From assembly GCA_002753335.1 (NCBI GenBank), contig PEAD01000002.1:124001-188000 (forward strand): 64,000 nucleotides of DNA, in the 5' to 3' direction. The notes under the pieces were generated by a model, which did no database searches, had not been told where the DNA came from, and saw nothing but the letters and a program-made list of their open reading frames with translations. Made by a program: the position numbers and the translations under genes. Numbering within the stretch: the stretch's first letter is position 1; each line of letters begins with the position of its first letter. Source of the stretch: Nitrospirae bacterium MYbin3 (GTDB lineage: Bacteria > Nitrospirota > Thermodesulfovibrionia > Thermodesulfovibrionales > Dissulfurispiraceae). Shown here one piece after another: positions 9,352 through 20,793 of this stretch.

Positions 9352-10128
9352 CTAGAATTCCACTCCCACTTCAGCAAACGGTCCGCTGAATTTAAATCCG
9401 GCCTTTATGTCTTCCGCATCAATGCTGATATCTTCGTAGCGGTACCCTGCTGCGATAAAGCCTTTTAGTATGCCGGCATTTATAACTCTGCCTTTAATTC
9501 TTCCAACCACATCGTAATAGTGGGCATTGCCAAAGGATATGCCTCTTAAATCTGCCTCAATAGAAACCTTTTCGTGAATTTTTATCTGTGCTCCAAGATA
9601 ACCCATAGGCACAGGAAGGGTAAGGCTTTTTGATATGCTCTGGTTTGTAGCAGGCTGGTCAATTTTTATTTTAAAGTCTATTACTCTAAGATTTAATCCT
9701 GCATCAACATTAAGAGTGTCTTTCGTGGCGGTTTTCACAAATGGAACACCATAATAAAAAGCAAAGTCATAGTGATCGAGCGTAAGTTCTGTTGAATATG
9801 AATTATTAGCCGTAAAATTCTGGTTGTCAAACTGGAAATTTGCGGCCTTGATACCGGTTCCTTTGAATTTCATGGGAGTGGCCATAATGTAAATATTGGG
9901 CAAAAAAAGCGGCAGCTCAGCCTTGACACGAGCATACATCTGGCTTTTGCTGTCATATTTCAGATCACTTGCAAGGCCGAGAGAGTCGCCTTTATACTGA
10001 AGATTGCCGTCAGGGCGCTGGTACCATACACCCAAGGCCACCTCTCCGCCAAGAGCCAGAACTATTTGTGGTATAAAAAAGACAGAAAAGAAAATGAATA
10101 TACCCATCAATTTCGAAAATTTCAACAT
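9352..10128 (-). CDS. Outer membrane beta-barrel protein (TIGR04219-like)
   Basis: Signal peptide; ELPLFLPNI and PVPMGY motifs; C-terminal GPFAEVGVEF. Confidence 0.8.
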   Translation of the reverse strand: MLKFSKLMGIFIFFSVFFIPQIVLALGGEVALGVWYQRPDGNLQYKGDSLGLASDLKYDSKSQMYARVKAELPLFLPNIYIMATPMKFKGTGIKAANFQFDNQNFTANNSYSTELTLDHYDFAFYYGVPFVKTATKDTLNVDAGLNLRVIDFKIKIDQPATNQSISKSLTLPVPMGYLGAQIKIHEKVSIEADLRGISFGNAHYYDVVGRIKGRVINAGILKGFIAAGYRYEDISIDAEDIKAGFKFSGPFAEVGVEF

Positions 10129-10164: not shown

Positions 10165-11103
10165 CTATTTTGCTGATGAAACTTTGTCGCCTTCTTTTAT
10201 TGAATCGCATTTTCCGCTTATGCAGACTGCATCTGCCGAAACTTTGTCGCAGCCGATAATCTTCAAATCTGCTATAGGTTCAACTATGCGTCTTATCACT
10301 TGGCCTGTGGTGGGGCTCGTTATTTCTTTTGTAACCTTGATTACGTACATTGTCATGTCTTTTTGGATACCGATGTTTTGTCCGGCGTCTAAAATGAATG
10401 TCTTGTTGCTGCGATCCACATGAGCAATGACGGTATTTAAAAAAGAATCCTTAATTTTAGCTGATTGGTCTTTTAGCTGTTTCACAATGTCAGTAACAGT
10501 TTTTCTTGTTGCATTTCCCAATAAGGCGTCAACTTGGCCTGTATCATCAACAGCCGCATAATCGCCCATTTTAAAGCCGGAGGCAGAATCATCTCCCTTT
10601 CCTTCAACAGCAGTTATTATTTCTGCAGAAGTAGTATCAATCATTCTCGCATTTGCAGCCACCTTTGCAACGCTTGTTTTGGTGCCTATGCCCAATATTC
10701 CGGTACTCGAAAAGCTCAGTCCATACTGTGTAACGCTTCCGACAACAACTGCGCTTACACCCAATATCTTGCCTATTTTAGCCGCCTCAGCAGTATCAAC
10801 AAGCCCACTCATAGAAAACTTTTGTTCATTTAATACTTTTTCGATCTGCCCTCTCTCTATTACTTTAAAAGTCCCGTCTTTAACGAGCTCGGTAATAAGC
10901 ATATCAGTAACAGCACGTCCTATATTGCTTTTGTTTATTTTGACGTTCTGAAGTCTGCCGTCGTCGTCCTTTTTCTGAACCTGTGTGGTTGTGGCTGCAT
11001 CCTCAAAGTCCAATACCGCTATTTTTTTCTCGCCTGCGTGAGATATTCCTGCGATTAAAACAAGAGATAATGCTAAAGCAACCACATTTTTGATAGAAAA
11101 CAT
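10165..11103 (-). CDS. CsgG/HfaB family protein with C-terminal FlgT-like domain
   Basis: IAVLDF...DMLITELVK...FKVIER..IEKVLNEQ...AAKIGKILG..VVGSVT. Confidence 0.85.
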   Translation of the reverse strand: MFSIKNVVALALSLVLIAGISHAGEKKIAVLDFEDAATTTQVQKKDDDGRLQNVKINKSNIGRAVTDMLITELVKDGTFKVIERGQIEKVLNEQKFSMSGLVDTAEAAKIGKILGVSAVVVGSVTQYGLSFSSTGILGIGTKTSVAKVAANARMIDTTSAEIITAVEGKGDDSASGFKMGDYAAVDDTGQVDALLGNATRKTVTDIVKQLKDQSAKIKDSFLNTVIAHVDRSNKTFILDAGQNIGIQKDMTMYVIKVTKEITSPTTGQVIRRIVEPIADLKIIGCDKVSADAVCISGKCDSIKEGDKVSSAK

Positions 11104-11173: not shown

Positions 11174-12106
11174 TTAAAACAAACTGTAAAATCCGAAGGT
11201 TAGTGACGGTTTCCGTTTTTCGGCATTCACACAGTTATAACTTGTGGATACAGGTATGTTCACTCCCAAGTTCAGCGCACGCTTATCGGTGAAAAAATAC
11301 TTCACCTCAGGAGTAACGTCCACAGTTGAAAGCCTGTCTTGCTGTTCAACTCCTTCTATCTTTGTCCCCTGGGTTACCGAGCCTGACAGTTTAAGTCCTG
11401 TCCAGATTCTCAGCTGTTTTGCAACATTAGCATCTAAAGCGGCCATCCAGGTAAACGAATCACCATAATTTACTTTTTGTCCATATACCTTAGGAGTATT
11501 TATTGGATGTATATACCCACCACTACCTATAAACCTGAATATGTCTATCCTTTTTATAATCCTCTGCGTAAGCCCAACATCATAGGAACCAGAGCCGAGT
11601 CCTGCATCCTGATCGCCCGACGGAAGCTTTCCTGTTATTAAGGTCTGGTATTCTATCTCCTTCTCATCACCGAACCTCTGTTTAAGTGTCAGGCTTATGT
11701 CGCCGATACTGGACGATTTATTCCAGTTGCCGTCTGCCTCCTGATATTTAACGAACATAAAAGGCACGTTTCCTACGATTGCGGTCCTTTCGCTAAAACT
11801 GTGGCTTATCGGAATGTTAAAGACTTTTTTGTTGCTTGACATGGTTGAGTCAATGCCAACCCCTGTTGTCCCAGCAGGAACCGGAGCCGCTGTTGGCGTC
11901 TGGATATCCGTGTTAGTCTGAATGGTTGACTTCACAGAATCATTGCTTATTTTGTCCTGAGGATTGTTCGGAACGACTATCTTTTCTGCTCCCACGGGAG
12001 CAGTTTCTGATCCTCATCAAGCTGCTGCTGCAAAATTAGCAACAGATACGACTAAAACAAAGCCAAGAAGCAATACTACAAAAAACTGGTTTTTTGATAG
12101 ACTCAT
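11174..12106 (-). CDS. Outer-membrane beta-barrel transporter-like protein, candidate selenoprotein (two in-frame TGA at codons 30-31)
   Basis: AGGAGG RBS and ATG at 12106; 29-aa signal peptide; TGA TGA at 12014-12019, in frame with ORF 11174..11995; GDISLTLK / KLPSGD..GLGSGSYD barrel motifs; terminal Phe. Confidence 0.7.
11986..12003 (-). promoter_or_regulatory. Putative bacterial SECIS hairpin
   Basis: Minus strand CTGCTCC-CGTG-GGAGCAG starts after a 10-nt spacer from the second TGA; G in the apical loop. Confidence 0.6.
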
Positions 12107-12183
12107 AGATACCTCCTAAAATAATTAGTATTGGCATATAAATTAGCACGATAAAAAAGAATTTTTCAATAATAAGCGTAAAT

Positions 12184-14835
12184 TTAACCTTCTGCAAGAT
12201 TCTTGACTCTTTTTCTAAGCTCGTCAGCAAAATGCTGGTATACATCAGTTTCTCCTGCTTTTCGCCTGATGTCCATTCGGTCAATTTCAAGCGGGCTGCC
12301 GAATGAAACCGTTATTTTGCAGGGCTGTATAAAAGCGGAGCCCTTAGGGAGAGCTTTGAATGCGCCTTCAATATAAGCAGGTATCACCGGGACACCGAGC
12401 TCTACTGCTAGCACACCAATGCCTTTTTTGAAGGGCATAAGCTTACCGTCAAAGGACCGGCCACCTTCAGGGAATATGCAGAGAGAAGACTGTTTTTTAA
12501 CTGCAAAGGCTGACAGTTGCAGTGCCCTATGCAGATAAGTTTCCTGATCTATAGGAATTACGTGGCCCAATTTGGCAAGCCATGATCTGAGTTTGCCAGC
12601 AAAAAAATTCTGCAGTCCCAGAAAATAAAGTTTTTTAAAAACATCAAAAGGCACCGATGCAGCAATAATAAAAGCATCAAGATAACTTGTGTGATTAGGT
12701 GCGATTACGAATGCTCCTTCTGCCGGAATGTTTTCGAGTCCTCTTACTTTTAAGCAAAAAACTGTTTTAAAAATAAACTTCTTGGCAAAGAACAAAAATC
12801 TTACAATTGCTGTTTCAATGATGCTCAAACGGCTTTCGATTCTTTTTAAGTCTTCGGTTGATGGCGACTTAGCAAGTATTGTCCCCCATTCAGATTTTTC
12901 AGAAAATTGTTTTTCACCGGTATCGCTTTTTTGATCTGTCAAACATTCTTTTATAAGGACTACTGCATCTTTTACTGTTTGCACCCTTGAGGTAAAAGCT
13001 TCCGGGATATTTATCAAAAATGTTTCTTCAAGAATTGACACAAATTCTACCCGCTTTAAAGAATCAAAACCGAGATCGAGTTCTATATTCGTGTCCCATT
13101 GTATCGAAGCCTCGTCATCCGCAAGCGAATTAATGCAGCGCACCACCTCGCGCCCAACAGAATCCTCAATCAGTTCTTTATCTATTCCCCTGCGTTTTTT
13201 AGCCTCAACAGACGCTTTCAACGATTCCCCAACCATGAATCTGCGCAGTTTCCCAAGCGGCGTGCGCGGAAGAGGTTCCTGACAGAGAGTAAAGCCTTTT
13301 ATACGCATATATTCCGGCAGCTTCATAGACACTGCACTGATATCCCATTTAAGCGTTTCAGAAATATTGCCGATTTTTATTTTTTTTGCATATTCCAGGT
13401 CAGGCACTATCACCGCTTGAACAGCATGAGCCACTCCTTTATTTTCGATGCCGACCACACAGATCTCTTTTATGAGGGCAATTGATGAATACATTTTCTC
13501 TATGTCTTCAGGATAGATGTTTTTGCCTGAGCTCAATACTATCACTTCTTTCTTTCGAGCCGTAATAAACAGATACTCTTCATCGTCAAGATGTCCAATG
13601 TCTCCTGTAAAAAAACGGCCTTCTTTAAGAACCGCTTCTGTTGCAGCCTGATTCTTGTAGTAGCCTGTCATTACCATAGGCCCTTTTACCGTAATCTCAC
13701 CGTCATCCGATATTTTTATGTCAGCATTTGCCAGCGGTTTCCCCGCCGAGCCCGGTTTTCTTTTTTCGGGCGGGTTAAATGTTATGACAGGCGAGGTTTC
13801 TGTAAGTCCGTATCCTTCAAGCACGGTGAACCCAAGGGCTTCGAGATCGCTCATAACCTCAGGTTCTAGGCGGGCGCCGCCGCTTGCAAAAAACCTGAGT
13901 TTGCCGAAATTTGAGTGGACCGAGCGAAAAAATATTTTTCCGAGATTTAGTCCTGAATTATTTCTCAATATGCCGCAAAAATTCATAAGCTTCAACAGGA
14001 GAATCGAAAACCCTTTGCGTTCCTTTATCCGTGCAACAATACCATTTCTTATCATATCAAGCAGTCTCGGCACACAAACAACAACCGTCACACCGGTGTT
14101 TTTTATGGCCGAAACAATTTCGGCAGATTTTATTCCCGGACTGAAGGTTATTGAGCTGCCCAGAAAAAGCGGAACTATAAATGTGCACATGAAAGGGTAG
14201 GTGTGATGAAGCGGCAAAACAGAAAGTACAGTGTCATCCTTTGTAAGTACGCCCGCAGCTATCACCGCATCGGCATCTGAAGAGAAATTTTTGTGCGTGA
14301 GAACTACGCCTTTAGGTTTGCCTGTTGTGCCGGAAGTGTAGATTATAGATGCAATACAATCAGCCGAAAGAGAATCGCAGGGAGAAGGGTTGAATCCTTC
14401 AGGCACAGGCATCAGCGATTCTTTTTCTATCGGTACAGCTTTCGTGTTCATTGCTTTTGCGGCAGCAAGCGCAACATTTTCCGTTTTCGCACTAAAAAAT
14501 ACGACCTTTGCTTCCGAATCTATTAAAAGATTTTTGACCTCTTCCGCTCCGAGTTGAGCGTCTATCGGAACAGCTATCGCGCCAAGCCTTACAGTCGCCA
14601 TGTACGAGGCGCACCATTCAGGCCTGTTTTCGGAAACTACAGCAACCCTGTCGCCCTTTTTTATACCTGACAAATAAAGTGTGCATTCGAAACACTCTAT
14701 AAGAGAATGGAGTTCCGAATAGGTCATGGTTTCCCATGAGTCTTCATAGTAATTAAACGCAATACTATTCTTGTTGTCTGCAAGTGACAATGAGAACATA
14801 GAAGGAATAGTATTGCTATTTATTGAATCAGCCAT
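12184..14835 (-). CDS. Long-chain acyl-CoA synthetase fused to acyl carrier and lysophospholipid acyltransferase domains
   Basis: YTSGTTGKPKG, EGYGLTET, TGDIG; DLGFDSL (ACP Ser); NHTSYLD and FPEGGRS (PlsC). Confidence 0.92.
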   Translation of the reverse strand: MADSINSNTIPSMFSLSLADNKNSIAFNYYEDSWETMTYSELHSLIECFECTLYLSGIKKGDRVAVVSENRPEWCASYMATVRLGAIAVPIDAQLGAEEVKNLLIDSEAKVVFFSAKTENVALAAAKAMNTKAVPIEKESLMPVPEGFNPSPCDSLSADCIASIIYTSGTTGKPKGVVLTHKNFSSDADAVIAAGVLTKDDTVLSVLPLHHTYPFMCTFIVPLFLGSSITFSPGIKSAEIVSAIKNTGVTVVVCVPRLLDMIRNGIVARIKERKGFSILLLKLMNFCGILRNNSGLNLGKIFFRSVHSNFGKLRFFASGGARLEPEVMSDLEALGFTVLEGYGLTETSPVITFNPPEKRKPGSAGKPLANADIKISDDGEITVKGPMVMTGYYKNQAATEAVLKEGRFFTGDIGHLDDEEYLFITARKKEVIVLSSGKNIYPEDIEKMYSSIALIKEICVVGIENKGVAHAVQAVIVPDLEYAKKIKIGNISETLKWDISAVSMKLPEYMRIKGFTLCQEPLPRTPLGKLRRFMVGESLKASVEAKKRRGIDKELIEDSVGREVVRCINSLADDEASIQWDTNIELDLGFDSLKRVEFVSILEETFLINIPEAFTSRVQTVKDAVVLIKECLTDQKSDTGEKQFSEKSEWGTILAKSPSTEDLKRIESRLSIIETAIVRFLFFAKKFIFKTVFCLKVRGLENIPAEGAFVIAPNHTSYLDAFIIAASVPFDVFKKLYFLGLQNFFAGKLRSWLAKLGHVIPIDQETYLHRALQLSAFAVKKQSSLCIFPEGGRSFDGKLMPFKKGIGVLAVELGVPVIPAYIEGAFKALPKGSAFIQPCKITVSFGSPLEIDRMDIRRKAGETDVYQHFADELRKRVKNLAEG

Positions 14836-14963: not shown

Positions 14964-15040
14964 GGCGGTGTAGCTCAGACGGTTAGAGCATGCGGCTCAT
15001 ATCCGCAGTGTCCGGGGTTCGATTCCCTGCACCGCCACCA
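14964..15040 (+). tRNA. tRNA-Met(CAT), elongator type (Ile2 not fully excluded)
   Basis: Cloverleaf, G1-C72 pair, anticodon loop CTCATAT, CCA end. Confidence 0.93.
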
Positions 15041-15171: not shown

Positions 15172-16056
15172 TTAATCACCAAGTCGATATGGTATAGTGT
15201 ACTGCCTTATTGCATCCATTACATGATGTAGTAACCCGCCCATGGATCTTGAATAATATTCCGCTCCTATCTTTTCAATCTCGTAAAGAATATATTCCTT
15301 TTCATTTAAACGTCCTCTATGTTCAGGGTGAGACCAAACAAGGTTAACCAACTTTTTAAGATACTCTATGTTTTCATTTGATTCCATTGTTTCAAAAAGA
15401 GGAAGCAAAAGATTGCAGTCTATGTCCTGCCAGTCAAGAATTTGATTAAACAGCTTCAAGGGAATATCTACTGATTTTATGAAGAAGTGAGCACTTGATT
15501 TCATATACGAATTAATATTTTGATGATATTTTATATCCATCAATTTTTTTTCTACTTCATTCTCATTAAAAAATGCAAAATTGCGCTTTCTCCGCGCCAC
15601 AAAAATATTATTCTCTGTATCTTTTATGGCAAATGCGCATGCCGTGTAGCCATTGCGCTTTTGTCTCCATATACGTCTTGCGTACTCTATCGGTTCATCG
15701 GAAATCCTAAAAAAAATAAAATTAACTTTAAGATTGTGGTTAGCAATAATATTTATGATTTCATAATCAATATCTCGTTTGATATTTTCGGGTAAAATAA
15801 TTTTTATAGGACAAGTCATGTCTGCCTGCCTAAAAGGATTATACGATGTATTGTCTAAATACCCTGGATCCAAATTTAAAAATGGTGCCATCTTTTTCAA
15901 ATAACCCATTGACAGCGAATTTTTCCCACTTTCATATTGCGCTATTGCAGCCTGACTTACTCCTATTGAATCGGCAATATGTGCTTGAGATATACCTTGC
16001 ACCCGCCGTGAAATTAGAAGTAACTTTGAAAATGCAATCATCGGAGGAAAAAACAT
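15172..16056 (-). CDS. XRE-family HTH transcriptional regulator with unknown C-terminal domain
   Basis: GISQAHIADSIGVSQAAIAQYESG. Confidence 0.8.
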   Translation of the reverse strand: MFFPPMIAFSKLLLISRRVQGISQAHIADSIGVSQAAIAQYESGKNSLSMGYLKKMAPFLNLDPGYLDNTSYNPFRQADMTCPIKIILPENIKRDIDYEIINIIANHNLKVNFIFFRISDEPIEYARRIWRQKRNGYTACAFAIKDTENNIFVARRKRNFAFFNENEVEKKLMDIKYHQNINSYMKSSAHFFIKSVDIPLKLFNQILDWQDIDCNLLLPLFETMESNENIEYLKKLVNLVWSHPEHRGRLNEKEYILYEIEKIGAEYYSRSMGGLLHHVMDAIRQYTIPYRLGD

Positions 16057-16091
16057 ATGTTACATTATATATTTGATTTTAAAATATTCTA

Positions 16092-16203
16092 CAAATAGTA
16101 TCTATTTGATATTGCAACAATTTTTCTTCAATTTTATTCGTCATAAAAACACATAACTTATTTTATAACATATCTATCAATATTTATAACATTTTGTTAT
16201 AAA
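16092..16203. promoter_or_regulatory. Palindromic operator candidates in the divergent xre/tniQ intergenic region
   Basis: CAAATAG-tat-CTATTTG (16092-16108); TTTATAACA-ttt-TGTTATAAA (16183-16203); extra half-site at 16162. Confidence 0.45.
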
Positions 16204-16220
16204 TATTCAAGGAAACTTCT

Positions 16221-17378
16221 ATGAGAAAAAGCACTAAAGCTATTAAGCAAAGAAACTTAGTTATTGTTGATAACCCATACCAACCACTTGATCTAGAAAT
16301 TCCAGAAATCCCTGAACGCAGAATACTTATAGCTGACCCTATTGGAATCGGTACGTCACTTATAGAGGGTCTCAACAGCTTGATTTCTCGAACAGCGCAA
16401 AAATATAGCATTCCGCTTAATATCCTAATGTACGAATTTTTCCCACAGTTAAAGGAAAAGCTTGTTTTCTACTCTGAAAAAAAGAAAGCACCTTTTATAA
16501 AGCCAGAGTTGTTCAAAGAGATTGAGAGCGCAATTTCCTCAACAATGCCACTTATGAGGAGTTTGAACAACAATATTAATCTTCAAATGCTAACTACGGC
16601 GACATTAGGATTTCACAAAATTAGATTTCAGCATTTAAATGAGCCCATTATCCGCAGATCTCGCGCATGGTGCCCAAATTGCTATCAAGACTGGCATGAT
16701 CGAAAATATCCGGTTTACGACCCCCTTATATGGAGCATATCATGCATTAAGGTCTGCCCTACACATAAAGCTCATTTGCTTTTATCCTGCCCCTACTGTC
16801 TTGCAGAGCCACCAATGATTGCCGACAAATACCGCCCAGGCTATTGCTCCAAGTGCCGAAAATGGCTTGGTAAGAAACAAGATAGAAATAATTACGATAG
16901 TGTTGATTTAAGATGGCACAAATGGCTTTTTAAAAACATAGGTGCGATGATTTCAGAGCAACACAGCAAACATGAGGTCAAATTTGCAAGCAGAAAATAC
17001 CGAATAATGAAAGCGTGTTTTGATGAACTTGGACTACCCCAGCATAATGTTCAATCTGCAACAATTGAAAATTACTTTCCCTCGTTTGAATCATTTCTGA
17101 AATTTATTTATTTGTCAGGCCTTCAATTTTCCAAAATGATGTGCTGCGATGAAGAACTACTCCCAATTAACATTTCTGAGTATGCCAAGGCATCAGAAGA
17201 GCTCAAAAAAAGACATGAAAAATATAGCAATATTTTTTCTCGACCATATAATTTAGCCGATTCGATTGATCATGAGAAAACAAATTATTGTTTCGATGTA
17301 AATATTTTTGATCTCATTCTTGGGTGCAAGAAATTTTACCCCACTCGATTAGGCACTAATAATGATATTAGGACATAG
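16221..17378 (+). CDS. tniQ: TniQ family protein
   Basis: GIGTSLIEGLNSLISR; RAWCPNCY...YDPLIW...CPTH..L...CPYC...CSKC zinc motifs. Confidence 0.88.
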   Translation: MRKSTKAIKQRNLVIVDNPYQPLDLEIPEIPERRILIADPIGIGTSLIEGLNSLISRTAQKYSIPLNILMYEFFPQLKEKLVFYSEKKKAPFIKPELFKEIESAISSTMPLMRSLNNNINLQMLTTATLGFHKIRFQHLNEPIIRRSRAWCPNCYQDWHDRKYPVYDPLIWSISCIKVCPTHKAHLLLSCPYCLAEPPMIADKYRPGYCSKCRKWLGKKQDRNNYDSVDLRWHKWLFKNIGAMISEQHSKHEVKFASRKYRIMKACFDELGLPQHNVQSATIENYFPSFESFLKFIYLSGLQFSKMMCCDEELLPINISEYAKASEELKKRHEKYSNIFSRPYNLADSIDHEKTNYCFDVNIFDLILGCKKFYPTRLGTNNDIRT

Positions 17379-18696
17379 CTATTTATCAAGCTTAAATCCA
17401 GAAGGACTAGGAACTCCTCTTGCTGAGTCCGTAACTAGTTATATACCTCGTTTATGCAAACTACATTCTATTAGCTTTAGCACGTTTCTATCAGACATTT
17501 TATTTCCGAAAATGGGTACTTTGTCATTAGTAAATAGCATTAAAAGGGGTTGTTCCAGAGTTTATACGCGCCCGTATGCGTTTAACGGCGTCAGCAATTT
17601 TACCGAGAAGATAATCCATACACTTGAGCTTCTCACTCTCCAAAAGAATCTAATTTATATAACATTGCTACCACTAAGAAATATCATTAGCTGTCAAAAC
17701 GTCTTCCGCCATTATCGCGCATGGTGTCCAATATGCCTTGCAGAACGCAAAGATCGTGCACTCACAATATACGAGCCTCTCGTATGGACAATAAAAGCCG
17801 TTAGGAGTTGTTTAGTCCACCACATATCACTACGCACTCAATGCCATAAATGCGGCAATATGCTACCAGTGATAGCAAGACATGTCCAAAACGGGTTTTG
17901 CTCTACATGTGGGCACTGGCTCGGTTTAACAGATACAAACAATAAATATCCTGTGGATCCTATCCCCGATTTCGACTCATGGAAAGATAGAAACATTGGT
18001 GAATTGATATCTATTCTTCCAGAAACTATAAATATAACTCGCAACGAAACATTGCGTACAGTACTAACAGAGCACATTAATTTGCATTATAAGGGTAGTG
18101 CCTCGGCATATGCCAGGTCGGCAAAAATTCCAAAAGCTACTATAAGCAGATGGCAAGCAGGAACAGCTCTGCCTTCCCTAGAAAATCTCTTGAAGATAAG
18201 CTACAGAAGCCAGACACCATTAGCAGACCTTATAACTAAGGGTCGCTTGCAGAAGGATGCTAAAGTCTTTGATTATCAGGATTCGGAATCTCTTTTCCCC
18301 GCTTCTCCAAGGAAGACCAATGATTTTGACTACGCTTATGTCAAGCGACACCTCGAATCTGTCCTTAAAAGCAAATCGGAAAATCCTCTTTCCATGACCA
18401 AAGTGGCTGAGAATTTAGGCTATACGAAAAAAACTTTATACAAACATTTCTATGTTCTTTGTCGGCACATCTCAGCGAAAGCAGCATGTCATAGAAAAGC
18501 CCGCAAAGAGCAAAGACTAGGTCAAGAAAGACTTTTTGTTGAGAAAGTTGCTGAACAACTGCACATCGAAGGCGTGTATCCAAGCTATGACGCTATCGAA
18601 AATGCAGCCCCCAAAAAAGGAATTATGCGCAGCCACGAATCACGAGACGCTTGGAAAAACAAGTTGCGTGAGTTTGGGTTTGAGAATGGAGGCTGA
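17362..18696 (+). CDS. tniQ: TniQ/TnsD family target selector with C-terminal HTH domains
   Basis: GLGTPLAESVTSYIPRL; RAWCPICL...YEPLVW...CLVH...CHKC...CSTCGHWLG; HTHs IPKATISRWQAG and MTKVAENLGYTKKTLY. Confidence 0.88.
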   Translation: MILGHSYLSSLNPEGLGTPLAESVTSYIPRLCKLHSISFSTFLSDILFPKMGTLSLVNSIKRGCSRVYTRPYAFNGVSNFTEKIIHTLELLTLQKNLIYITLLPLRNIISCQNVFRHYRAWCPICLAERKDRALTIYEPLVWTIKAVRSCLVHHISLRTQCHKCGNMLPVIARHVQNGFCSTCGHWLGLTDTNNKYPVDPIPDFDSWKDRNIGELISILPETINITRNETLRTVLTEHINLHYKGSASAYARSAKIPKATISRWQAGTALPSLENLLKISYRSQTPLADLITKGRLQKDAKVFDYQDSESLFPASPRKTNDFDYAYVKRHLESVLKSKSENPLSMTKVAENLGYTKKTLYKHFYVLCRHISAKAACHRKARKEQRLGQERLFVEKVAEQLHIEGVYPSYDAIENAAPKKGIMRSHESRDAWKNKLREFGFENGG

Positions 18697-18768
18697 TTCT
18701 TTAAGCGCAAAAAAACAATACCAATAAAAATCGACCAGCATTAATGCGAGGTCAAAAAGGAGGCAGTT

Positions 18769-19901
18769 ATGTTATCTAGTGAAAATTTTGAGGTCTGGTG
18801 CGCAAAGAATAGGGTGTCCGAAAAAGCAAAGGCTTTCATTTCACGCGTCCGGGGTTCACAACCCTCAAGGGCTGTGGGGAACCGGTTGCGAAATGTCAAA
18901 GGTGCTTATCCCAGCAACAAAAATGGCTTCATGGTCCAGTTTGAAAGCCACACAGCTGAACTATGTGGTATTTATACTTACGAGTATGATGCTGACGTGC
19001 TGGAATACTATGATCAGCCCGAATTGATATATGTCAGATACAAAGACAAAAACGGCAGGGCGGGACTTTTTGGATATAGGCCGGATTTCCTGGTAATTAC
19101 AGAATCATGTGCATTCATTGATGAGTGGAAAACTGAAAATCAAATCGCAAAGCTATCTGCTGACTATCCCGACCGGTATTACCGTGATAGTGACGGCACC
19201 TGGCATTATGTGCCTGGGGAGGAATTTGCTGATAGCATTGGTCTTCAATTTAGAGTACGAACAACTGAGGAGATTAATTACACGCTACATCGCAATATTC
19301 AATTTTTAGAAGATTATCTCCGCGCAGATAATTTAACAATACCGGAAGAAAAGATAAACCTTATACTTTCAACTGTTAAAAGCTCTCCCGGAACAACTCT
19401 TTCAAGCCTTATTGATAGTCTCTCACCGCAGGTAAGCGTTGATTTTATATATATAATGATTTCCGATTTTAGAATATATCTTGATCTAGAAACATATCTA
19501 CTTGTAGACCCTGAGCATGCAATCATTTTCCCGGATGAAGAAATCGCAAAAGCCCTTAAAATATTCGATACCCAGCACCCTACGCTTTCTTTCCAGGACC
19601 TGCGACCTGTTTTGGTAGATGTCGGAGGATCATTAGTATGGGACGGCATACCTTTGACGATTGAATTTGTGGGGGCATCATCAATAGTTCTTAAGGGCAG
19701 GGATGATAAAATCATCACGTTAGAAAAAAGTTTATTAAACAAGTTTGTTCGGGAAGGAATCATTACCGGCCTTACTACGGTTACGGGAACTTCACGTGAT
19801 TTTGTATTGGAAATTATCATGAAAGCTAGCAAGGATGCCTTGATTAAGGCAAATCATAGGTACCAAACCATACTGCCTTACCTTACCAGAAATAACCATA
19901 G
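18769..19901 (+). pseudogene. TnsA-TnsB fusion transposase, 5' part only (interrupted by IS3)
   Basis: TnsA endonuclease motifs QFESH.E, EYYDQP, YRPDFLV, DEWK; frame continues past TnsA length; last ~15 codons of ORF 18769..19950 come from the IS end; no DDE core. Confidence 0.8.
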
Positions 19902-19962
19902 TGAGAAGTGGTCGGGTTTGTCTGTACAGGCTGAAGCCTATTATAAGTGATAAGCTGTTCTA

Positions 19963-20793
19963 TCAGGCTGCCACCTTAATAGATGGCAATGTGCCATAGT
20001 AAACTTCATCCGGTGTTTTGTCGTCAAGTCCTTGATGCCGCCGCCGACCGTTGTAAAACTCAAAATACTCTATAAGTCCTTTCCTTAATTCCGCAATCGA
20101 ATCATAAGACTTCAGATAAATATCTTCATATTTCACGCTTCGCCAAAGTCGCTCTACAAATACGTTATCTTTCCAGCAGCCTTTTCCATCCATGCTGATC
20201 TTAATCCCGTTGTCTTTGAGTATTTCCGTAAATGCCTCCGATGTGAATTGACTACCTTGGTCTGTATTGAAGATCTCTGGTTTGCCGAACCTTGATATCG
20301 CCTCTTCAAGAGCCTCTGTACAAAAAGAGGTATCCAGCGTATTTGATAACCGCCAGGCCAATACTTTTCGGCTGGCCCAATCCATTATCGCTACAAGATA
20401 GCAAAATCCCTTGGCCATAGGTATATAGGTTATGTCAGCCGCATATACCTGATTCGCACGATTGATTTCCATTCCACGCAACAAGTAGGGATAAACCTTA
20501 TGATCAGGATGAGGATTAGATAGCCTTGGCTTTTGGTATAAAGCCACTATGCCCATCTTCAACATCAGCGTCCGTACATGGCCGCGTCCAATCTCATGCC
20601 CTCTGTCCCTTAGCTCATTGCGTATTCTCCTGTTGCCGTAAAAAGGATATTTCATGTGAATTTCATCTATTAGGCGCATCAGCTCCAGGTCTTTTGCGTT
20701 CATAGGAAATGATTCATAATACAAGCTCGATCTCGACATGTTTAGTATTTGACATTGCCTGGTCAGCGGCAATTCATTAGCACGATCTATCAT
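19963..20793 (-). CDS. IS3 transposase OrfB (DDE integrase core)
   Basis: ADITYI, NTDQGSQFTS, DNVFVERLWRSVKYE. Confidence 0.95.
   Translation of the reverse strand: MIDRANELPLTRQCQILNMSRSSLYYESFPMNAKDLELMRLIDEIHMKYPFYGNRRIRNELRDRGHEIGRGHVRTLMLKMGIVALYQKPRLSNPHPDHKVYPYLLRGMEINRANQVYAADITYIPMAKGFCYLVAIMDWASRKVLAWRLSNTLDTSFCTEALEEAISRFGKPEIFNTDQGSQFTSEAFTEILKDNGIKISMDGKGCWKDNVFVERLWRSVKYEDIYLKSYDSIAELRKGLIEYFEFYNGRRRHQGLDDKTPDEVYYGTLPSIKVAA

Follow-up and report, generated by a model that had tools for sequence, protein, structure and literature searches.

Can two consecutive UGA codons between a signal peptide and an outer-membrane barrel both be read as selenocysteine (Sec) through a single hairpin? 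The question is raised by a reverse-strand gene of Nitrospirae bacterium MYbin3, located in the window analyzed here, the whole 64,000-nucleotide stretch at positions 124,001 to 188,000 of contig PEAD01000002.1 (assembly GCA_002753335.1). We conclude that the sequence feature is real and unusual and that the gene is probably a tandem-selenocysteine gene, with an assembly artefact as the concrete alternative. Both codons, the hairpin, the intact frame, and the Sec genes of the genome are directly visible.

Gene layout at the signal-peptide junction

Every element described in the initial annotation is present in the sequence: a ribosome-binding site, the ATG at 12106, a signal peptide, TGA TGA, a perfect hairpin, and a barrel in frame (Table 1). 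Signal peptide and barrel fall into one frame only via both TGAs, and the position of these codons exactly at the signal-peptide junction supports read-through. Taken as one gene, the barrel ORF has a signal peptide upstream and an aromatic residue at its C terminus. Based on the A-x-A rule, cleavage would occur after Ala28 or Ala29, and residues 5 to 28 of the signal peptide form a helix in an AlphaFold2 model. Databases split the gene in two, a 29-aa peptide (P0050) and a 273-aa barrel that lacks an export signal.

Table 1. Coordinates of the candidate gene and its neighbors, given as positions in the window
Feature	Position	Strand	Description	Basis
Ribosome-binding site AGGAGG	12112..12117	-	5 nt upstream of ATG 12106	read from sequence
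Predicted signal peptide	12020..12106	-	29 codons, ends in four Ala	read from sequence
TGA TGA, candidate Sec-Sec	12014..12019 (12019-12017, 12016-12014)	-	codons 30 and 31, in frame	
SECIS-like hairpin CTGCTCC-CGTG-GGAGCAG	11986..12003	-	7-bp Watson-Crick stem, CGUG loop	
Open frame	11174..12013	-	279 codons to TAA 11176-11174, last residue Phe	
CsgG-family (PF03783) exported protein	10165..11103	-	directly downstream of barrel gene	
TIGR04219 outer-membrane beta-barrel gene	9352..10128	-	next downstream (context)	
AMP-binding/acyl-carrier/acyltransferase gene	12184..14835	-	upstream of barrel gene	

Two other ways of reading the layout were rejected. A barrel restarted internally at GTG 11995 would lack an export signal; the nearest Shine-Dalgarno-like run is at a distance of 15 nt, and the GTG itself is part of the hairpin loop. 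A variant genetic code is ruled out, as TGA ends 414 of the 1,308 long ORFs of the genome.

No selenium or metal link was found among the neighbors of the barrel gene. A same-genus genome carries an orthologue of the upstream gene, followed by approximately 400 nt of unrelated sequence that runs to the contig end without a barrel start. The only DNA run listed does not cover the TGA site: it has no depth over 11814-12014, and the nearest contig of that run ends at 12083. Elsewhere in the window, a low-GC block (15172-20793) comes after a tRNA-Met gene (14964-15040). It contains ORFs that we take to be TniQ-like (two), transposase-like (one), and IS3-like (one), and is likely an integrated mobile element.

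The hairpin and its expected frequency by chance

The hairpin (12003-11986) has an energy of -10.8 kcal/mol. It starts 13 nt past the first TGA and 10 nt past the second, and its loop lies 20 nt from UGA30 and 17 nt from UGA31. As given in the accessible sections of PMC13188914, the bacterial SECIS consensus comprises a loop of 3-9 nt with G in the first two loop positions, a stem of 4-16 bp, a spacing of 16-37 nt, and an energy of -7.5 kcal/mol or lower. The SECIS-like character originally proposed for this hairpin extends to every feature of that consensus, for UGA30 and UGA31 alike, and the spacing agrees with that of SECIS elements in this lineage.

The chance level was assessed by applying the same hairpin test (energy of -10.8 kcal/mol or lower) to control positions, with thresholds fixed after the target had been seen. 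An equal hairpin follows 39 of 12,000 random TGAs when the loop may lie at 16-37 nt and 12 of 12,000 when it must lie at 17-23 nt; the corresponding counts are 29 and 10 for 6,540 early in-frame codon positions and 2 and 0 for the 414 long ORFs that end in TGA. Among positions that follow a signal-peptide-like sequence in this genome, 1 in 1,288 has such a hairpin, and back-translated homologue linkers (n = 12,000) yield 0.48% and 0.09%. Overall, control positions have an equal hairpin downstream in 0.1-0.5% of cases. When the target peptide itself was recoded synonymously (n = 20,000), an equally good hairpin appeared in 8.6% of sequences; the structure is thus largely given by the encoded peptide, and codon choice alone indicates no clear selection.

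The stem receives a terminator-like score only when read on the + strand, where no ORF of at least 80 aa ends, and a terminator role was rejected. Rfam returned two weak matches, both under the gathering score, and no donor of the UGA-hairpin segment within the genome was found among the best 20 blastn matches listed. A second TGA TGA with a strong hairpin (-16.8) occurs on contig C63 at 35113 (-), together with a T-run and downstream sequence that has no coding signal; it is an ordinary double stop with a terminator.

Selenocysteine decoding in the genome

The proposal presupposes Sec machinery, which was found: selA, selB, and selD score above curated cut-offs and tRNA-Sec (selC) above the Rfam cut-off. 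The selD gene of this genome itself carries a TGA. Fourteen TGA-containing candidates were scanned, and 11 match selenoprotein-bearing families (a peroxiredoxin, SelD, three rhodaneses, YeeE with two TGAs, VhuA, VhuD, a DsbA-like protein, ExtKL, and FdhA), three of which, SelD, ExtKL, and FdhA, pass curated cut-offs; the remaining three candidates are not selenoproteins. Nine of the hairpins in these known families have the loop 19-23 nt from the UGA, that of SelD lies at 32 nt, and two sites have no strong hairpin. The spacing of UGA31 (17 nt) is shorter than that of the nine strong SECIS elements.

Under thresholds that were again picked after the target had been seen, the whole genome was scanned, starting from 1,824 TGAs with an upstream ribosome-binding site and start and at least 20 open codons after them. 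A hairpin of -6 or lower with its loop at 17-24 nt was found at 39 of these TGAs. Only ten of the 39 have a coding score of at least 0.1 on both sides, and these are nine selenoprotein-family genes and the target. Among relatives, a hairpin of -8 or lower with the loop at 20 nt accompanies 15 of 17 Sec-type peroxiredoxin genes, and none of 11 Cys-type peroxiredoxin genes has one reaching -7. The target hairpin and the peroxiredoxin SECIS elements have this 20-nt register in common, and in most cases a 6-bp stem as well.

The stem arms of the target and of the selD hairpin are identical at 13 of 14 nt, a post hoc comparison in which 6 of 704 background hairpins do likewise. When the 10 known hairpins of the genome are compared with one another, none attains 12 of 14. 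Because no known SECIS matches another so well, the resemblance to selD is not something that Sec recoding predicts, and we give it little weight.

The selD hairpin (C46 39188, +; loci L178-L191) is itself unusual in that its loop lies 32-33 nt from the UGA, and 12 of 13 readable selD loci, that of the present genome (G000) included, share this far-placed hairpin; L185 was mis-parsed. The gene for the YeeE/TsuA-type transporter has two in-frame TGAs (C46 68879 and 68012, -), with a strong hairpin at the second only. About 1.3 kb upstream of selD, the gene for a small exported protein has an in-frame TGA (C46 37813, +) with a weak hairpin (-3.8 at 22 nt). The segment around this TGA presumably resembles a MerP/heavy-metal-binding motif, and the gene is possibly a further selenoprotein.

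Protein fold and family

No Pfam or NCBIfam model matches the target protein. An AlphaFold2 model built on a 23-sequence alignment (pLDDT 83) has approximately 12 long strands forming a predicted beta-barrel from residue 81, with short helices at residues 51-64 that are likely a plug of presumed position; the N-terminal arm (residues 24-45) is modeled at low confidence. The one Cys of the target (residue 292) is absent from the 22 aligned homologues. The best Foldseek matches are Pput2725 (PDB 4RL8; E = 1.4e-12) and FapF (PDB 5O65; E = 2.7e-12), with a TM score of 0.64 by query length. The initial description of the protein as a porin-like barrel is borne out to this extent: the frame is intact, and the modeled fold is that of a COG4313/FapF-like channel. 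In a leave-one-out test the barrel scores 353 bits against its profile, within the range of eight intact homologues (254-375 bits), and thus has not decayed.

The target shares a barrel with an N-terminal plug segment with the COG4313/PF13557 channels (Pput2725) and with Pseudomonas FapF, and its predicted number of strands (about 12), signal peptide, and C-terminal aromatic residue agree with those of COG4313 channels. However, it is only 14-17% identical to Pput2725 and FapF and has no match to the PF13557 profile, which 5 of the 23 aligned family members do match. The N-terminal segment of Pput2725 plugs the barrel from the periplasmic side, according to the available part of PMC4493636; by analogy, the two UGA residues of the target are probably on a flexible periplasmic arm.

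The barrel family is rare and patchy. At E <= 0.001 it numbers 67 representatives, including the target's own two pieces. It occurs only in G000 among 317 genomes of the order and in 2 of 401 in the phylum, and in two samples centered on other hosts it was found in 4 of 401 and 13 of 239. Many homologues adjoin CsgG/FlgT-like or large lipoprotein genes (read by eye), and these neighbors suggest that the core role of the family is secretion or surface assembly rather than selenium handling or aromatic uptake. The same genome has a stop-free paralogue, 39% identical, at C59 50066-51073 (+); a short extension carrying two separated Cys forms its mature N terminus, and a CsgG-like lipoprotein gene follows it, as a CsgG-family gene follows the target. 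Another homologue, L114 (G703:C37), consists of the C-terminal barrel half only, and its neighbor is what we take to be a type I methyltransferase-like gene.

Homologues at the UGA positions

The initial annotation looked to homologues with CC, CU, UC, or UU at the two codons, and on this point it found no backing: none of these pairs follows the signal peptide in any relative examined. Specifically, CC occurs after the signal peptide in 0 of 72 family proteins and inside the signal peptide in 3 of 72. In the closest homologues (50-51% identical), a signal peptide is present and the mature start is free of Cys. No relatives above 55% identity were found, and N-terminal segments no longer align at that distance. 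In six distant members, the paralogue among them, Cys residues occur singly or far apart in unrelated N-terminal extensions, and acidic mature starts with Asp/Glu-rich stretches are frequent among homologues.

At the DNA level, the segment from start codon to barrel contains no in-frame TGA in any readable homologous locus (1 + 17/20 + 17 loci). Three weak short matches were left out of the 20-locus set, in which L050 is truncated at a contig boundary and L055 contains an N gap, and the last 17-locus set overlaps partly with the genomes of the earlier sets. The first scans of a three-sequence alignment against loci found nothing, and viral contigs and plasmids gave no match. Weak matches in the loci of 29 relatives were rejected as members of another PF13557 subfamily, whose mature start has neither Sec nor Cys, as were 28 of 30 PF13557 loci from the family, with L081 and L088 left out. 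A lipoprotein with Sec at the lipobox is not favored, since close homologues have Ala-type cleavage sites.

Every known selenoprotein now seems to have Cys homologues, according to the portion of the deep-Sep paper available (PMC12013277). As neither a Cys homologue nor a PF13557 match was found for the target, we assign it neither to the bacterial SECIS selenoprotein genes nor to the COG4313 channels, although it resembles both in the way it would work.

Assembly error and other explanations

The explanation that competes most directly with Sec insertion is an assembly artefact, in which the gene would be an ordinary stop-free barrel with an acidic mature start and the hairpin a coincidence. 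We consider this doubtful, yet it has a concrete route: if a base was gained where the Ala29 codon ends and another was lost approximately 7 nt later, Asp-Glu would turn into TGA TGA. The argument that two independent nonsense mutations would be required does not stand, as one local 1-nt slip over GAT-GAG yields both TGAs; since stops that look like paired 1-nt slips are seen in housekeeping genes of this assembly, the economy argument for Sec falls. The error survey compared G000 with the same-genus genome over 1.75 of approximately 3.6 Mb (800 orthologues, 281,777 aa); DNA-level gap counts were discarded as too noisy at approximately 80% identity. No two-frame breaks were found among the 800 orthologues, and nine rows have internal stops. 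Four of these stops are mid-gene with coding signal on both sides, one near the C terminus is ambiguous, and four rows were dropped as lying upstream of the real start or as shadow frames. The four mid-gene premature stops are length-neutral, and three are unselected, the fourth being a GGDEF gene picked beforehand. They occur in glutaminyl-tRNA synthetase (C46 13104, -), in pyruvate kinase (C41 71840, +), and at C41 48428 (+) and C1 51525 (+), in a GGDEF response regulator and an unnamed gene. At all four sites the adjacent residue is also unlike the orthologue and there is no net frameshift. In the response-regulator/GGDEF gene, the Asp-Glu of two relatives has become Gly-TGA, and the DNA reads as a single-base insertion and a single-base deletion no more than 5 nt apart. 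We infer that these stops are errors and not real mutations because they are in housekeeping genes, and they likely represent a systematic type of assembly error. The Asp/Glu-rich mature starts of many homologues, none of which needs Cys, also fit an artefact. In contrast, the lesion rate is low (approximately 1 per 90,000 codons, or about 10 per genome), and the error must have struck within a few codons of the cleavage site and before a hairpin that is rare in controls (0.1-0.5%), for which the joint chance is very small. SECIS-like hairpins are absent from all five lesion sites (best, -5.0).

Real UGAs could also serve as a selenium-dependent checkpoint on synthesis, either with no chemistry for the residues or with one Sec only, which we regard as improbable. 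The residues would then be dispensable, or be lost with the signal peptide if it is cut after U31, or UGA31 would mostly terminate. Consistent with a checkpoint, Cys at this place is dispensable for the family, a cut after residue 31 would produce a chain beginning with G-S, as mature P0003, P0007, and P0044 do, and UGA31 is nearer to its hairpin, at 17 nt, than in any strong SECIS of the genome. However, selenium-related neighbors are absent, as is the conservation that would show selection, and the Ala run is a better signal-peptidase site. It is very unlikely that the locus is a true pseudogene, that is, a newly acquired accessory gene with a real compound mutation and a hairpin arising by chance. 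Such a history would suit a family this patchy, with a stop-free paralogue on C59 and a homologue, L114, without its N-terminal half. But there is no further lesion in 310 codons, the ribosome-binding site and signal peptide are intact, the profile score is undiminished, and the same chance hairpin is required. The likelihoods that we attach to the four readings are matters of judgment, and the prior for an orphan Sec-Sec protein is small and poorly known.

Proposed route to a protein with consecutive selenocysteines

We lean slightly toward an exported outer-membrane channel with a functional Sec-Sec pair, both UGAs being read via one hairpin. An even chance is what we give to the fuller description, a protein with two consecutive Sec residues, one SECIS, and a soft-metal-binding or redox-switched tip, in a family without Cys at that place; synthesis of such a protein would require selenium at two successive steps. 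SelB carrying Sec-tRNA would dock on the hairpin and decode UGA30 at 20 nt, the spacing of the lineage's peroxiredoxin SECIS elements; one codon on, the loop would be 17 nt from UGA31, still within 16-37 nt, and a second Sec would be inserted. Signal peptidase would cleave after the Ala run, leaving (A)-U-U-G-S as the mature start. The barrel would enter the outer membrane with its arm probably periplasmic, as for the Pput2725 plug, and with Sec-Sec at the arm tip before the plug.

Homologues work without Cys here, so the pair would be a lineage-specific add-on. Our preferred role for it, by analogy with CC/CU motifs, is soft-metal (Hg/Cu-type) binding or a redox tag near the plug, which is the weakest step of the proposal. 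The available part of PMC4513850 gives a recoding efficiency of 30-40% per UGA in E. coli; at that rate approximately 10-15% of ribosomes would get past both codons, and output would be low and selenium-sensitive. As a by-product, the channel would be made only with selenium available. A plausible, speculative origin is a U-C ancestor and one base change.

Comparison with known selenoproteins

With bacterial SelB/SECIS recoding of the E. coli fdhF type, the gene shares an in-frame UGA, coding sequence on both sides, a hairpin, and a genome with selA, selB, selC, and selD; it differs in that two consecutive UGAs would use one hairpin and in that no Cys homologue was found. A vicinal chalcogen pair is also a feature of the CC/CU selenoproteins SaoB, SaoC, SaoL, and HgcA. 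In the sections of the literature available, these have CU, TU, or CC, many Cys homologues, and a conserved operon, whereas the target has no NCBIfam match. Some CC/CU-motif selenoproteins are exported, and metal binding has been proposed for them, in the accessible part of bioRxiv 10.1101/2022.07.06.499078. The GSU2204 family (an MtrB/PioB-type barrel) and the FCYXU TonB-dependent receptor are beta-barrels with Sec as well, but as described in the source sections at hand each has a single Sec, and their families and motifs are unlike those of the target.

Neither a UU motif nor the COG4313 family appears in the accessible part of Table 1 of PMC13188914 (119 families, some motifs blank), and the main text of the BSepDB paper (PMC13326102) contains nothing matching. 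Within a limited coverage of the literature, we found no report of a Sec-Sec protein occurring naturally in bacteria or of a bacterial SECIS serving two consecutive UGAs. If the Sec-Sec reading is true, a single bacterial SECIS is sufficient for two adjacent UGAs, and a Cys-bearing family is not a prerequisite for the origin of a selenoprotein. Current pipelines, which filter on Cys homologues (as described in the available portion of PMC12013277), would miss both cases, and the gene would be a natural template for the limits of SECIS spacing and for vicinal Sec-Sec chemistry. If the TGAs are an error, a 1-nt slip over Asp-Glu makes TGA TGA, and orphan Sec calls made from this assembly should be verified against reads.

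The genome also contains hgcA, which we treat as context only for the proposed metal role and which scores above the NCBIfam cut-off at C57 4634-5596 (-), and on this basis the organism may be a mercury methylator.
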